Position numbers and translations under genes: made by a program. Of a stretch of DNA of 30,757 bases, positions 19,311-29,729 are shown one piece after another. Source of the DNA: a virus (taxonomy: Duplodnaviria; Caudoviricetes); IMG/VR virus record IMGVR_UViG_3300038316_000377, positions 1 through 30,757 of that record; one strand, given 5' to 3'. Within the stretch, counting starts at the first letter, position 1. Each line of letters opens with the position of its first letter. Under the pieces are notes generated by a model. That model saw only the letters and a list, made by a program, of their open reading frames with translations. It was not told the origin of the DNA and made no database searches.

Positions 19311-19645
19311 CCCATCTCTTCGACTGTCTTCTTCGAGTGACAGCTCGGGCACAAGGACTGGAATGGCCCATCCCAGAACATCTTGGGGTCTCCTTTGTGA
19401 GGGATCACGTGGTCCACGTGTTCTGCTGGTGTTGTTATGCCTATGCGCTCACACGAAGCGCACCAGGGGTGCTCCGCCAGGAACGCTGCCCGAAATTTCT
19501 GCCACCGTCGATCGTACAACTTCTGCCGGCTCCGGTCTCGTGTCCATCCACTTGCCGTTGAAGCTACCGCATGTACCTGGCACCGGCCACCCGTCACAAG
19601 GTTGGGGCACCCAGGATACGAGCACGGTCGTAGTGGTTTGTACAT
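19298..19645 (-). CDS. HNH endonuclease (terminase-associated)
   Basis: CSYPGC, HPWCASC, HVDHVIPHKGD, QSLCPSCHSKKT. Confidence 0.93.
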   Translation of the reverse strand: MYKPLRPCSYPGCPNLVTGGRCQVHAVASTASGWTRDRSRQKLYDRRWQKFRAAFLAEHPWCASCERIGITTPAEHVDHVIPHKGDPKMFWDGPFQSLCPSCHSKKTVEEMGRGG

Positions 19646-19646
19646 C

Positions 19647-20096
19647 TCAACAACCCTTCAGCTGTTTCAGCTCTGCCTCCAACACTGTGATCCGGTTGGC
19701 TAAGCTTGCTATGGTTACGGTTTGTTCTGCGATCTTCCGATCACGCTCCGCTACATCCAACTGGAGCTTTTCGATTTCGTGTTGTTGTGCGCTTTTCAAA
19801 TTTTCAAGCTCCTGGATCTTTTGGTCACGGCTTCTGACTTCTGCTCGCAACACATCGACCTCGCATGTCAGCTCCGAGATCTTTGTGCTTTGCTTTTCAA
19901 TTTTCACGTCTTGCTTATCTGCCTTACTGTCCAGCTGCTCAAGGCGGTCTTTGTACTCCTGGTAAAGCAAAGAGCTTGCCTCGTTTGCCACCTTTTGAGC
20001 GACAGAGTGCACATGCTTTCGGGCCGCAATAGCGCGGACAATCTCAACGATTACGCCACCGGTCAACAACCCAGCTATGACAGCGCCCCAGTCCAT
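19647..20096 (-). CDS. Membrane-anchored coiled-coil protein (lysis accessory candidate)
   Basis: N-terminal hydrophobic helix then long heptad coiled coil; next to holin. Confidence 0.6.
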   Translation of the reverse strand: MDWGAVIAGLLTGGVIVEIVRAIAARKHVHSVAQKVANEASSLLYQEYKDRLEQLDSKADKQDVKIEKQSTKISELTCEVDVLRAEVRSRDQKIQELENLKSAQQHEIEKLQLDVAERDRKIAEQTVTIASLANRITVLEAELKQLKGC

Positions 20097-20443
20097 TAGA
20101 TAATGCAGCCCCGCGAAGCCTTGATTTGCTTGATCTTGCTGGTTTGTGGTGAAACGATGTAAGTGCCAGCATTGAAGATCAAGGCCTGGATAAATGCGTA
20201 AACGGCTTGGACCAACGTTATCGGGCCTGCTGTGGATGGGATCAGTCCGTTGTTGACCAGTAGGAAGATCGTTACTGTAACGACCAGCATTGCGCCGATC
20301 ATGATCCCGCTCTTCACTTCAGATCTCAATCCTGCATACCAGGTCGAGAGCGCTGGGAAATAAGAGGCCAGCAAACTGGCAATCACAGCGATGATATTAA
20401 TGATCATCTCAGGGGTAAACTCAATTGGTTGCATCAACTCCAT
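20096..20443 (-). CDS. Holin-like membrane protein
   Basis: Three hydrophobic helices, basic C-terminus; AGGAGAAGG RBS; ATGs at 20443 and 20434. Confidence 0.65.
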   Translation of the reverse strand: MELMQPIEFTPEMIINIIAVIASLLASYFPALSTWYAGLRSEVKSGIMIGAMLVVTVTIFLLVNNGLIPSTAGPITLVQAVYAFIQALIFNAGTYIVSPQTSKIKQIKASRGCII

Positions 20444-20469
20444 CCTTCTCCTGGTCACACCAGGCGCTT

Positions 20470-20518
20470 AAAAACGAAAAACCAACCACGCGATCTCTCT
20501 CAAGATCAATGGTTGGTT
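20470..20518 (-). terminator. Intrinsic terminator in the late-operon leader
   Basis: AACCAACCA...GATCT-loop-AGATC...TGGTTGGTT followed by TTTCGTTTTT. Confidence 0.7.
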
Positions 20519-20558
20519 GGAAGCCAACAAACGCCAGATATACGGTTTTCTACCTAAT

Positions 20559-20587
20559 ATAATACCAGATATGGGGGTCTAATGCAA
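20559..20587 (-). promoter_or_regulatory. Sigma70-type promoter for the late operon
   Basis: TTGCAT-17 bp-TATTAT with TG extended -10. Confidence 0.7.
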
Positions 20588-20611
20588 GTAATTCACAGGG
20601 GAAGGTACTCC

Positions 20612-20726
20612 TTAAAGCACACCGCCCCAGTGGGGGGACTGGAGCGGTGCTTCGAGGGCGGAGAGATGGGATAGTGCTCCTTTTTTCTCCTTTAACCCGA
20701 GTTGCTTAGTGGGTTCTCGCTGACTA
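20612..20726 (-). ncRNA. Candidate ~110-nt small RNA antisense to the neighbouring tRNA-like RNA
   Basis: Starts about 6 nt after the TATACT -10; 5' end TAGTCAGCGAG-AAC-CCACTAAGC; ends in GC-rich hairpin 20615-20652 + TTT; no ATG-started ORF. Confidence 0.5.
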
Positions 20727-20731
20727 ACCAT

Positions 20732-20761
20732 AGTATAGCTGATATTGTCATTTTATGTCAA
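20732..20761 (-). promoter_or_regulatory. Sigma70-type promoter
   Basis: TTGACA-18 bp-TATACT. Confidence 0.75.
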
Positions 20762-20790
20762 GAGAAACCAAAGGATTTGTAAAGAGGTGT

Positions 20791-20863
20791 TGCCCCCAGG
20801 GAGACTCGAACTCCCATCTAACACGTAGTCAGCGAGTTGCTTTATCCACTAAGCTATGGGGGC
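20791..20863 (-). tRNA. Atypical tRNA / tRNA-like RNA (Val-GAC in the standard fold, Arg-like body, no encoded CCA)
   Basis: GCCCCCA-TA-GCTT-AGTGGATA-AAGC-A-ACTCG-CTGACTA-CGTGT-TAGAT-GGGAG-TTCGAGT-CTCCC-TGGGGGC-A; U-U mismatch in anticodon stem, U37. Confidence 0.8.
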
Positions 20864-20931
20864 AAGCACAATGATTATTCTACTATACCGCCACACCATT
20901 TTCTACAAAAACACCAGTGAGAAATCTTAAA

Positions 20932-22446
20932 TTATTCTAAACCGATATCCAGCTGCCCGACATCCTTGCCCTTTTTGGCTTCCGCTTTTTTGAACGGGTT
21001 TACCGTGTCTGCAGGCAGTTTCAGTTCCTTTCCTTCAAACCATTCCCGGATCGATAATAGTTGGATCCGTGGGAATGCGGTCGCCTGGGTGTACTGATAT
21101 TCTCCAGACATAGTCGCCTCACGTTTCATCTCAGATGTGGCATCCTTGAGTGTGATCAGGATTCCCATTGGGGCATCCTCTCTCTCCAGGTCGCCTTTCA
21201 ACCTGGCAACATCTCCCCTGTTAGTCCCTCCGCCTTTCACCTGGACAATGATCTTGCGTAGTTTCGGATTGGAATAATCGACTTTTTCTCTGAAAAGGAT
21301 GATTCCATCGATTCCTCTATCAGCACCCTTCTTCGATACACCGCTTGGAGGGTTTGCACCAACTAATGTGATTGCCCAGTCCTGGAAGGCAAACTTGTCT
21401 TTTTCAGCCAGTGCTGCAGCCGATTCATAATCCATCGGGATCCCGTCAATGTTGACATTGATCCCTGGGAAGTGGTTAATCATTCTTTCCCTGATCACAT
21501 TGATGGATTGCATGCTGATGTCAACCCCGACCCAGTTCCGGTTCAATCGCTCAGCCACTGCCACGGTCGTCCCACACCCGCAAAACGGATCCAACACACA
21601 ATCGCCTTCATTGCTGGACGCCTGGATGATCCGTTCCAATAGTGCTTCTGGTTTTTGCGTCGGGTAACCCAAGCGTTCTTTAGCAGTTGCATTGATAACT
21701 GGTATTTGCCATACATCAGTCATAATTACACCGTCGTTTAAATACACCTTTGCCCGATACTTTGCTCCATTCTTATCTCGTCGAGTGGTAAGTCTATAAC
21801 GACCTTGTTCATCTTCATGCTTATATCGAGTCTCTCTTTCATCTAGACTGCCCTGACTGTAATCTTGTAATGGACAGGTGAATAAGTGTTTTTGACGTGA
21901 CTTTGTGAAAAGGAGAATAACATCGTGCTTTCGTTGAAATGAGGTTGCCCTTTGAGTTGCCTTGGGCCCATAATACCAAATAATCTCGTTCAAAAACTCT
22001 CCTCCTGCTTTAGCAAATATCACATCCATGATCATCTTCAGATAATGGCTGGCCGTCGGATCGCAGTGCAAATAGATCGAGCCTGTCTCCTTCAATACTC
22101 GCCTGAGTGGAATCAGCCTGGCGGTCATGTTAACCAGATAGGCCATCATTGGGGTATCTCTCATGATCTCAAACAAGCTCTGCATCATGATCGCGATCTG
22201 CGGATTCGGGTTTTCCTTCAATGCTTCAAACAGACGTATGGTCGGAGGGGACCATTCCCAGGTATCCTCAAACGCCCGGATCTGCGCTGAAGCATCCACC
22301 TGGCCTTCTTTGAACAGCACGTTGTAATTACGGTTGGAATTGAACGGCGGGTCCAGGTAGATCAGGTCGAAAAGGTTATCGGAAAATCTCTCCTCTATTA
22401 CCTGCAGATTATCCCCAAAAAAGAGTGTGCGGTTCTCGAGTGTCAT
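20932..22446 (-). CDS. Beta-class N6/N4 DNA methyltransferase fused to a C-terminal Mrr-like PD-(D/E)xK domain
   Basis: YLDPPF (motif IV) precedes LDPFCGCGTT (motif I); YPTQKP; C-terminal GADRGIDG...VQVKGG; start MTLENR after AGGAGGT RBS. Confidence 0.9.
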   Translation of the reverse strand: MTLENRTLFFGDNLQVIEERFSDNLFDLIYLDPPFNSNRNYNVLFKEGQVDASAQIRAFEDTWEWSPPTIRLFEALKENPNPQIAIMMQSLFEIMRDTPMMAYLVNMTARLIPLRRVLKETGSIYLHCDPTASHYLKMIMDVIFAKAGGEFLNEIIWYYGPKATQRATSFQRKHDVILLFTKSRQKHLFTCPLQDYSQGSLDERETRYKHEDEQGRYRLTTRRDKNGAKYRAKVYLNDGVIMTDVWQIPVINATAKERLGYPTQKPEALLERIIQASSNEGDCVLDPFCGCGTTVAVAERLNRNWVGVDISMQSINVIRERMINHFPGINVNIDGIPMDYESAAALAEKDKFAFQDWAITLVGANPPSGVSKKGADRGIDGIILFREKVDYSNPKLRKIIVQVKGGGTNRGDVARLKGDLEREDAPMGILITLKDATSEMKREATMSGEYQYTQATAFPRIQLLSIREWFEGKELKLPADTVNPFKKAEAKKGKDVGQLDIGLE

Positions 22447-22483
22447 GTGTACCTCCTGGTGTGTTTTTGCCTTTGGTATCCAC

Positions 22484-22514
22484 ATTATACCTGCCTGCTC
22501 TACTTGAGATACAA
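22484..22514 (-). promoter_or_regulatory. Promoter for the methyltransferase
   Basis: Perfect TATAAT at 22489-22484; -35 poor (TTGTAT at 19 bp). Confidence 0.5.
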
Positions 22515-22550
22515 AAACCAACCAACGAACAAAAAGAGTCGTTGGTTGGT
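22513..22550 (-). terminator. Intrinsic terminator at the end of the early operon
   Basis: Perfect 12-bp stem ACCAACCAACGA/TCGTTGGTTGGT then TTTT. Confidence 0.8.
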
Positions 22551-26999: not shown

Positions 27000-27953
27000 C
27001 TAGGAGCTCGCAAGCCCCAACATTTCGCTTACCGTCATCCAGGTCTTATCCGGATTTGGCATCAGCTTCTGTAAATACAATCTCGTGGTCTCAACGTTGT
27101 TTTGTTTCAGGAACCTCCTTATCGTGTCTTCATCATCGCCAGCTTGTGCTCTCAAATAGGCCGCTGTATGGCGCAAGCTGTGCACTTTCAACCCCCTGGT
27201 GCGCAGGCCGGCTTTTCGGGCGTAATACTTGAGACTGTCTCTGACCGTCTGGTCCGAGATTGGCAGGTCAATAATTTCCCCCGTGTTTGTATACCGGTGG
27301 AAAACAAAACCAGCGAACTTCTGCTCTGCATCGGCAAACGCCATGATCGCTTCGTACACTGGTGGATACACTTCTTTGGTCTGGTTTGGCTTGCCTTTGC
27401 CCTGGTACCTCATTATTACTATTCCACCTGGCAGCACTTCAAGATCCTCGTAACGGAGCTGCCGGAGCTCAGAATTTCGGAGCCCTGTCAGTAGATACCC
27501 TGCAAAAAGAGCCTTGTTTCGAAGCCCTGGTAGGTTGTCTGTATTGATGGCCCGTAGGAATGCTCCTGCCTGCTCTTCATCCCAACACATCGCCTTGCCA
27601 TATCTTTCGACTTTGGGCAGTTTGAAGCTTGCAGCCGGATTGTCCTCACGAAGACGGTACTCTTCACCGTCCATGTCCAGGGTGACATACTCTCTGATCA
27701 CAAAGGTATAGAAGCTCTTAACCCCGCTGATCCGGCTCGCGATGGTCGCGTCAGTCCTGCCCGCCTGGTGCAGATCTGCCAGCCAGCCAGCAATATCCTT
27801 CCGACTGATCTCCCAGGCTGGCTTTCCGCAAAAGGCAAGCAGGCCAGTCAGGCTCGAGCGGTAAGATTGCGCTGTGTTCCGGCTGTTCTGCCGGTCCAAC
27901 CACAGCTTGATCGCGTCCTGCCAGACTGCTTGCTTTGCTTCGTCAGTTGACAT
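27000..27953 (-). CDS. XerC/D-like tyrosine recombinase
   Basis: SAM-like N-terminus (NTAQSY...ATIASRISGVKSFY...NPA), TGLRNSEL, GKGK, HSLRH, TTRLY; start MSTDEAK after GAGGA. Confidence 0.9.
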   Translation of the reverse strand: MSTDEAKQAVWQDAIKLWLDRQNSRNTAQSYRSSLTGLLAFCGKPAWEISRKDIAGWLADLHQAGRTDATIASRISGVKSFYTFVIREYVTLDMDGEEYRLREDNPAASFKLPKVERYGKAMCWDEEQAGAFLRAINTDNLPGLRNKALFAGYLLTGLRNSELRQLRYEDLEVLPGGIVIMRYQGKGKPNQTKEVYPPVYEAIMAFADAEQKFAGFVFHRYTNTGEIIDLPISDQTVRDSLKYYARKAGLRTRGLKVHSLRHTAAYLRAQAGDDEDTIRRFLKQNNVETTRLYLQKLMPNPDKTWMTVSEMLGLASS

Positions 27954-27990
27954 AGGATTCCTCGAAAAAAGGGATAAAATAAATGGACAG

Positions 27991-28512
27991 ATGACAAAAG
28001 AAGGTGTTGAATTTCTTTTTACGATCCTCACCGGTCTTGCCACAACTGGTACGTTTTTGTTTCTCCTTTTTGACCGTCGTCCTAGCTGTGAAATCAAACT
28101 GCGGATCAGTGAATCGCAGCGGAGCTTCCCGAACATCAACGGTGCCAGGAATATGGTCTCCAGCCCTGAACTTTTCCTCACCATTACGAACACCGGACGA
28201 GTGGAGCTCTATATTGCAGCGGTATGGATTAATTCCGAAACATTCAAAACGTCGTATTATTTGCGCTGCAATCGTGTCAACCGAGACACCACTACCGGCT
28301 CCTTCGCGCTCTTGCCGAAAAGAAGAACAGTTCAAAGGATTTATCTCTCTGATCTCATTCGAGAATCTTGTCCAGAAGATGGAAAAGTTTCTCTGTTGGA
28401 GATTCAGGCAGAAATCGTTCTTGAAACCGGAGACAAATTCCATTCTAAGAAGCTTCCAATCCCAGCAGAATTACTTGAAGCAGCGTCAAAAGAGTCATTA
28501 ATCCAATCATGA
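27991..28512 (+). CDS. Membrane-anchored hypothetical protein (counter-oriented moron)
   Basis: N-terminal TM helix, then LTITNTGR beta-rich domain; opposite strand to the operon. Confidence 0.7.
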   Translation: MTKEGVEFLFTILTGLATTGTFLFLLFDRRPSCEIKLRISESQRSFPNINGARNMVSSPELFLTITNTGRVELYIAAVWINSETFKTSYYLRCNRVNRDTTTGSFALLPKRRTVQRIYLSDLIRESCPEDGKVSLLEIQAEIVLETGDKFHSKKLPIPAELLEAASKESLIQS

Positions 28513-29126: not shown

Positions 29127-29729
29127 ATGAAAAACTTGCATATAGCTAGAACAACTAAAGGTATGACCCAAGAACAAGTTGCTGGTTTGTTGGGAGTACA
29201 CCGTACTACCTACAATCGATACGAGAAAGGTCTTCGTTCACCTGATTTGGAAACTGTCTCCAAACTGGCAACAATCTTCGGAGTAACAACGGATTACTTA
29301 TTGGGAAGTAAGCCCAACGAGCAAGATCCTGATCAGATTCGTCTTATTCCTTTGCTTGGATCTGTCCCTGCGGGCACTCCCATTGAAGCCATTGAAGATA
29401 TCGAAGAGTACATTGATATATACCCACGCTTTGTCAAACACGGCGAGCTCTTTGCACTCCGGGTCCAGGGAGACAGCATGGAGCCCGATCTTCGTAATGG
29501 AGATATTGTCGTCATAGAAAAACAGGAATATGTCGAAAATGGACAAATAGCTGTTGTCCGTGTCAATGGGGAAGATTTCACCATTAAACGTGTGAAGCTC
29601 TCTCAGAAAGGTCTCATGCTCATCCCCAGCAACCCCGCCTATGACCCGGTCTTCTTTGATTCCGACCAGGTCGCCACCCTTCCCGTCACCATTATTGGAG
29701 TGGTAATCGAAATCCGTAGGAGGTTGTGA
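29127..29729 (+). CDS. cI: CI-like repressor (XRE HTH + S24 autopeptidase)
   Basis: HTH; VPAG cleavage site; GDSMEP (Ser) and TIKRV (Lys). Confidence 0.95.
   Translation: MKNLHIARTTKGMTQEQVAGLLGVHRTTYNRYEKGLRSPDLETVSKLATIFGVTTDYLLGSKPNEQDPDQIRLIPLLGSVPAGTPIEAIEDIEEYIDIYPRFVKHGELFALRVQGDSMEPDLRNGDIVVIEKQEYVENGQIAVVRVNGEDFTIKRVKLSQKGLMLIPSNPAYDPVFFDSDQVATLPVTIIGVVIEIRRRL

Follow-up and report, generated by a model that had tools for sequence, protein, structure and literature searches.

A phage tRNA and a separately promoted RNA complementary to its anticodon and D arms: a candidate RNA-only toxin–antitoxin cassette

Why would a phage place, directly behind a tRNA gene, a second promoter whose predicted transcript opens with sequence complementary to the anticodon arm of that tRNA? 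We addressed this question for a locus in a virus record of 30.8 kb (30,757 nt; IMGVR_UViG_3300038316_000377; Duplodnaviria; Caudoviricetes), the whole of which was analysed and is called the window here. The window virus is a temperate tailed phage. Its early operon lies on the minus strand, with a gene for a methyltransferase–nuclease fusion as the last gene; past this operon and the cassette come a holin-like ORF (so named by us from a membrane protein that matched no family above the cut-off) and HNH, terminase, portal, capsid, tail and endolysin genes. The fusion is a single gene directly upstream of the cassette, so this slot is possibly a hotspot for defence. An integrase-family gene (27000-28193, minus strand) occupies an unusual place within the early operon, after cro. 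The host is likely to be an Anaerolineae bacterium, because a related cassette (L250) is present in an Anaerolineaceae MAG; at odds with such a host, a copy of one homologous locus, L009, was placed in a bin labelled Desulfuromonas (L252).

The original prediction described a cloverleaf on the minus strand, a near-consensus promoter behind it and a short RNA with two blocks complementary to the cloverleaf, and all of these elements were recovered (Table 1). The cloverleaf (20863-20791) matches the Rfam tRNA model at 60.9 bits, is called tRNA-Val(gac) by ARAGORN and is itself the minimum free energy (MFE) fold; an alternative fold with an ACG loop is the MFE arm but has non-tRNA geometry. The tRNA has A20 (20845), C3-G70, A73, an unusual U37 (20827) and a U29.U41 mismatch, and CCA is not encoded, as in several Anaerolineaceae tRNA genes. 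With intact acceptor and T arms, it is a likely substrate for RNase P processing, as judged from the predicted fold. Homologues have a similar -10 box 7-15 nt upstream of the tRNA. The promoter of the small RNA (20761-20732) scored 11/12, the highest of nine sites in 19500-22500.

Both complementarities are exact, with perfect inverted repeats of 11 nt (20716-20726 and 20826-20836) and 9 nt (20704-20712 and 20846-20854). Cofolding of the two RNAs, a check that the original prediction had suggested, yielded a gain of -9.5 kcal/mol versus -0.1 ± 0.6 for shuffled small RNAs (sRNAs), and 0 of 500 shuffles were as low. As a control we used a generic T-arm and promoter scan (7/64 parts of the data), which returned 121 matches and no family member; in 0 of these 121 generic viral tRNA and promoter matches did an exact complementary block longer than 7 nt lie 60 nt or less from the -10 box. 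The end hairpin is present (z = -4.47 for 20605-20680) and is predicted by cofolding to be unchanged upon tRNA binding. Two AAGGAG motifs are also present, with no start codon after them, for which reason we rejected a CreT-like reading. Only part of the claim that AAGCAACTCG copies the junction of the D and anticodon stems stood: the 10-nt direct repeat is exact (20698-20707 and 20833-20842), but it is not maintained as a junction copy, because L227 and L231 keep it in their small RNAs although their tRNAs lack AAGCAACTCG. We discarded a 39-codon ORF over the small RNA, the ATG of which abuts the -10 box and which is not conserved in L009, L227 or L231; there was no conserved ORF in the small RNA across four homologues. 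A third block (20664-20671, complementary to 20812-20819) was discarded as well, since it is not kept in L009.

Table 1. Features of the cassette and its surroundings in the window
Feature	Coordinates	Strand	Basis or remark
Promoter-like site for the tRNA, the weaker of the two: TAGAAA-17-TAGAAT, 9/12	20877..20905	-	Promoter scoring
tRNA, 73 nt, anticodon GAC at 20830-20828; candidate RNA toxin	20791..20863	-	Rfam, ARAGORN, fold
Promoter-like site for the small RNA, strong: TTGACA-18-TATACT, 11/12	20732..20761	-	Hexamers kept, spacer diverged in L009
Antisense small RNA, predicted, ~115 nt; candidate antitoxin	20611..20726	-	Predicted ends; pairing, cofold
Target 1: 5' strand of the anticodon stem and whole loop, tRNA positions 28-38	20826..20836	-	Inverted repeat
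Target 2: 5' D-stem strand and D-loop through G18-G19, stopping just before A20	20846..20854	-	Inverted repeat
Block 1: 5' seed against the anticodon arm	20716..20726	-	Swapped together with the anticodon arm in homologues
Block 2: against the D arm	20704..20712	-	In relatives, one compensatory G-C to A-U and one U-G
Conserved segment AACTCGG...AAAGGAGAA; possible pairing with the T arm or with the 3' anticodon strand once freed	20677..20703	-	Inference
GC hairpin and short GTGTGCTTTAAG tail, terminator-like	20611..20652	-	Common to many cassettes; also alone at gene ends
DNA methyltransferase and Mrr-like nuclease domain fusion, upstream neighbour of the cassette	20932..22521	-	PF01555, PF22722, PF04471
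Separate late-operon promoter-like site, TTGCAT-17-TATTAT	20559..20587	-	Read from sequence; neighbour, outside the cassette
CI-like repressor	29127-29729		In the window

Comparison of ten holin-linked loci at the same slot revealed that the cassette is dispensable and swapped. L009 has a tRNA identical to that of the window, with promoter hexamers and blocks conserved and the spacer diverged. At the same slot, L001 and L002 carry a different, short-D-arm tRNA with anticodon CCT and its own 13-nt block. A small-RNA remnant with no tRNA is found in L003 and the hairpin alone in L010; an ORF occupies the slot in L005 and L006, and in L004, L007 and L008 the late promoter is present and the cassette absent. 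Given this presence, absence and swapping, we conclude that the cassette is an exchangeable accessory unit. One phage has two cassettes, L001 and L227, on the same contig, and L226 has two cassettes and an orphan small RNA. The late promoter, kept in loci with and without the cassette, leads (20587-20470, minus strand) into a leader of about 80 nt, alternative hairpins and a U-tailed terminator, and the promoter and leader are retained in all ten loci. This leader, which we take to resemble a pR'/tR'-type antitermination unit, has two 8-nt direct repeats 31 bp apart that are conserved in holin-linked loci.

Beyond this slot, we scanned for the end hairpin and for tRNA bodies of the arginine type bearing other anticodons, which yielded 32 tRNA/small-RNA pairs. 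Our catalogue holds 28 pairs (27 distinct tRNAs, 11 anticodons); L149 (L149/L207), L179, L196 and L236, which its pattern missed or which were found later, lie outside it. The catalogued pairs comprise 21 in tandem as in the window, 4 convergent, with the small RNA made from the strand opposite the tRNA, and 3 in which the small RNA is a terminated leader. Their best helix to the anticodon arm is 8-17 bp long and in 27/28 takes in the entire anticodon, a promoter of at least 8/12 lies directly ahead of the seed in 25/28, and the small-RNA promoter outscores the tRNA promoter in 22/25. Among 329 ordinary tRNAs, a comparable helix occurred in 10 and a helix with a promoter in 1, L019, which on inspection was an ordinary tRNA-Asp. 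L019 and L038 are large-phage tRNA-Asp genes with encoded CCA, U37 and no antisense partners. The candidate antitoxin is predicted to be specific, with the cognate tRNA ranked first in 24/28 by duplex energy and in 18/28 by whole-molecule cofold, figures that are inflated and partly circular because the catalogued small RNAs were chosen as the best-pairing site; promoter adjacency is independent of that choice.

In a check that the original prediction had suggested, the blocks were seen to change together with the tRNA across homologues. The window, L227 and L231 tRNAs have a near-identical body with the same acceptor and T arms; their anticodon arms differ, and the seeds match accordingly. 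In the D-arm helix, 36/36 cells are paired in four sequences, with one compensatory change, and the shuffle control (72/500) is not significant with four sequences. We conclude that the tRNA/antisense-RNA family is real and covarying. A 173-bp insert between the tRNA and the small-RNA promoter in L309 fits a small RNA acting in trans. A second, orphan small RNA in L149 gives -9.5 with the L145 tRNA versus -1.0 with its own tRNA. Phages with two cassettes and orphan small RNAs are signs of conflict, although a recent duplication could also explain the L149 case.

Searches of other collections delimit the family. There were 0 matches to the exact antisense pattern in viral contigs and none to the cassette in 50,697 GenBank phages; L228 and L220 as queries matched tRNA bodies alone, and of seven annotated matches examined, five (L314-L318) were ordinary tRNAs or contained no family tRNA. 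Contigs from RNA libraries, belonging to 4 of 23 listed runs, covered scattered pieces, L231- and L001-like cassettes among them, with strand, ends and level unreadable from contigs. Several small RNAs (L135, L150, L151, L170 and L001) have a conserved stem-loop in the 3' half, the loop of which is nearly complementary to the acceptor stem and, in four of the five, to the terminator that immediately precedes the tRNA promoter. The hairpin with its short tail also occurs without any tRNA (L155, L157, L158, L161, L165, L251 and L253), where it lies at the ends of genes or closes further short RNAs that have a promoter; a conserved 5' motif is common to L161 and L253.

What the original prediction overlooked is the disagreement between the identity elements of the tRNA and its anticodon. 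According to Table 1 of PMC9976931, bacterial determinants are A20, C35, U/G36, C3-G70 and A/G73, and also G2-C71, for arginine, A35, C36, A73, G3-C70 and U4-A69 for valine, and G3.U70 for alanine. Of the arginine set, the window tRNA has A20, C3-G70 and A73 and lacks C35 and U/G36, with C-U one position later, at 36-37. Of the valine set, it has A35, C36 and A73 and lacks G3-C70, U4-A69 and a purine at 37, carrying C3-G70, C4-G69 and U37 instead; A37 is found in 60/63 control C36 tRNAs. In place of the G2-C71 listed for arginine it has C2-G71, as does the host tRNA-Arg, and it is closer to Anaerolineaceae tRNA-Arg than to tRNA-Val.

The same disagreement recurs across the family, whose tRNAs, judged by body against anticodon, look mis-identified. 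All 25 full-D members have arginine-type bodies with non-arginine anticodons, with A20 in 25 and C3-G70 in 24; both elements were built into the arginine-body scan patterns (and GCT into one of them), and they also hold in members found via the hairpin or holin routes. C-[G/U] is kept in the loop in 25/25 (7 at 34-35, 8 at 35-36 and 10 at 36-37), a mark that was unselected in the 17 non-GCT members. Members with C36 and no C34-G35 have G/U37 in 10/10, versus 3/63 of the control C36 tRNAs. The three short-D members combine G3.U70, the alanine pair, and A73 with CCA or CCT anticodons (Trp or Arg). The GCU type has full arginine identity and no long variable arm of the tRNA-Ser kind, and is therefore predicted to insert Arg at Ser codons. 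Shifted recognition by E. coli ArgRS has reportedly been described (Kiga et al. 2001), a -1 case concerning position 34; a +1 shift would, by analogy, be an extension of that case.

We also asked how often such tRNAs have an antisense partner, leaving out those with a broken acceptor or T arm (8/29 of the GCU type and 5/29 from the other arginine-body scan). Intact C-[G/U] tRNAs of the scan for arginine bodies with other anticodons had a partner in 12/15, and those without C-[G/U] in 0/9; the three unpartnered are L242 and L222 and L246, the last two read as ordinary Thr and Arg tRNAs. Intact GCU-type tRNAs had a promoter-adjacent antisense site in 9/21 and none within 700 nt in 12/21. Two actinobacterial plasmids carry lone Arg-body tRNAs (L312:1197-1270 and L313:1198-1271) with anticodon AAC, G37 or U37, imperfect first acceptor pairs and operator-like palindromes over the promoter region, and neither had an antisense partner within about 1.2 kb (0/2). 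Since the 12 GCU-type tRNAs, L242 and the two plasmid tRNAs are unpartnered, such tRNAs can exist without this antidote. Unpaired relatives often lay behind hairpins, with an upstream MFE of -19.5 or lower in 10/12, a count with no control set. Three odd-anticodon Arg-body tRNAs stand in tandem behind a terminator at L194:1065-1300 (minus-strand numbering), where no antisense partner was found, and in L190 and L201 unpaired GCU-type tRNAs lie directly upstream of ORFs that read as transposase-like from their sequence.

We propose that the cassette is a two-RNA accessory unit in which a miscoding tRNA toxin is neutralised by a separately promoted antisense RNA, a reading of the sequence evidence to which we give a probability of about 60%. 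The host would mature the tRNA and add CCA, and ArgRS would charge it via A20, C3-G70, A73 and the shifted C36-U37, so that the valine codons GUC/GUU would receive Arg; alternatively, the odd loop might provoke frameshifts. The small RNA, in excess, would enter via the anticodon loop and unzip the two arms, blocking charging and decoding. Should small-RNA synthesis stop, because the prophage is lost or an infecting phage shuts it off, the tRNA, presumed more stable than its partner, would be freed and growth would halt, leading to addiction or abortive infection. Anticodon arm and seed would diversify jointly into specificity groups, and orphan small RNAs would give cross-immunity. We infer toxicity of the candidate toxin from the identity mismatch together with toxic precedents: E. 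coli cells expressing allo-tRNAs stop growing and die (PMC5389517), and tRNA-ProX species are toxic in E. coli (PMC10404621).

The best-surviving alternative, in our view an unlikely one, is that the tRNA serves the lytic phase as a decoy for an anticodon nuclease or ArgRS, or as a saboteur of host translation, and is silenced by the antisense RNA in lysogeny, with no addiction or defence involved. Pairing and promoter asymmetry fit this too, and unpaired relatives often lie behind hairpins or operator-like palindromes, which suggests that several kinds of silencing exist. However, among close relatives the slot either has a tRNA with another anticodon or no cassette, which argues against a fixed lytic need, and orphan small RNAs matching the tRNA of another phage suit conflict better.

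The original prediction suggested a switch of the kind known from phages P1 and P4, possibly controlling read-through into lysis and packaging genes. In the form weighed here, a tRNA-shaped repressor would bind the short transcript in trans and decide between termination and read-through into downstream genes, with the anticodon as a mere specificity code. In P1/P7 C4 and P4 CI, as in the cassette, a tRNA-shaped phage RNA pairs through two short, specificity-setting blocks. The resemblance in two-block recognition by an RNase P-like substrate favours such a switch, and feedback termination is plausible for the leader layout, in which promoter, seed, terminator and tRNA are followed by an integrase gene (L175 and L195). 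We nevertheless consider it improbable. The small RNA is on the opposite strand in 4/28 pairs, and its end hairpin is predicted to stay unchanged on binding. The next gene after the small RNA is either the holin-like ORF behind its own promoter or a convergent gene (convergent in L145, L147, L149 and L200), a separate promoter and terminator serve the late operon, and 3/10 holin-linked loci have no cassette and 2 have an ORF in its slot; for these reasons control of the late operon is not supported. Searches of the window and six homologous loci with Rfam models produced no C4, c4-a1b1 or related match, only tRNA-clan and sub-threshold matches, and the elements for synthetase identity are retained. 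C4 and CI repress antirepressor or lytic mRNA of their own operon, at sites in an mRNA that leads to icd/ant or kil, whereas the partner in the cassette is non-coding, stands alone behind a promoter of its own and contains no conserved ORF; the structured RNA of the cassette, unlike C4 and CI, scores as a true tRNA. PMC8201110 describes C4 as regulating ant with icd. Of the roles first suggested for the short RNA, that of a dedicated, separately promoted antisense partner gating the tRNA fits our results, but that of a late-operon switch is not supported.

That the window tRNA is an ordinary if weak tRNA-Val, an aid to translation whose level the small RNA tunes, is very improbable. Ordinary Val(TAC) tRNAs with A20 account for 14/27 matches in 401 Anaerolineae genomes, and in view of these and of its valine determinants A35, C36 and A73 the window tRNA may carry Val, correctly; in 13 phage genes, 49% of the Val codons are GTC or GTT. 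Against this reading stand the missing G3-C70 and U4-A69, the U37, the relatives with the same body that carry CGG or CGC anticodons and no Pro or Ala identity, and an antisense partner that ordinary phage tRNAs lack. Finally, although template switching can make short inverted copies and may be a source of new seeds, a functionless, one-off inverted duplication scar is contradicted by covariation across homologues, by 32 pairs of differing sequence with compensatory changes and by seeds sited at promoters, and its probability is negligible.

The miscoding-tRNA model has partial parallels among known systems. Laboratory mutants known as +1 frameshift-suppressor tRNAs are not known to have an antisense partner; several family members are likewise tRNA-Arg-like with one extra anticodon-arm nucleotide (74 nt), whereas the window tRNA has 73 nt and a 7-nt loop. 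The validated type VIII toxin–antitoxin loci named by TADB 3.0 are creTA and SdsR-RyeA; in this type, an RNA toxin and an RNA antitoxin are encoded on one strand or on opposite ones (PMC10767807). Both parts of the cassette are likewise adjacent non-coding RNAs, but its proposed toxin is a tRNA and there are many specificity groups. CreA works through a CRISPR effector on transcription (PMC10097628), whereas direct pairing with the anticodon and D arms is predicted for the candidate antitoxin of the cassette. Identity and anticodon also disagree in allo-tRNAs (Mukai 2017) and tRNA-ProX (Schuntermann 2023), both toxic in E. coli, and allo-tRNAs occur close to toxin–antitoxin loci (PMC5389517); allo-tRNAs have 8/4 or 9/3 Ser/Ala bodies and tRNA-ProX has Pro bodies with a dedicated synthetase. 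Cassette tRNAs, in contrast, have 7/5 Arg-type or short-D G3.U70 bodies, and the window tRNA is a 7/5 cloverleaf, not 8/4 or 9/3 as in allo-tRNAs. The word 'antisense' occurs 0 times in the main text of PMC5389517 or PMC10404621. A tRNA toxin with an antisense antitoxin was not found in the literature searched, which was largely open-access main text; irregular tRNA loci, treated in the supplements of PMC5389517, may be relevant to novelty.

On a broader reading, to which we give even odds, the family is a widespread and unrecognised RNA-only toxin–antitoxin class in phages and prophages, in which the toxin would be a mis-identified tRNA and the antitoxin an anticodon-aimed small RNA, with immunity groups and orphan antidotes against the tRNAs of rivals. 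It would embrace Arg- or Ala-charged tRNAs that read Val, Ser, Ala, Pro, Asp, Trp or Arg codons, or that cause frameshifting. If true, a tRNA would act as a toxin and a small RNA would target a tRNA anticodon, neither of which was found in the literature searched. Many annotated phage tRNA-Val, -Ser, -Ala and -Asp genes would then miscode, and to take them as supplements to codon usage would be wrong, and shifted-register recognition by ArgRS would appear to be used in nature. The cassettes would also provide natural, orthogonal on/off switches for tRNAs, each pair in about 300 bp.
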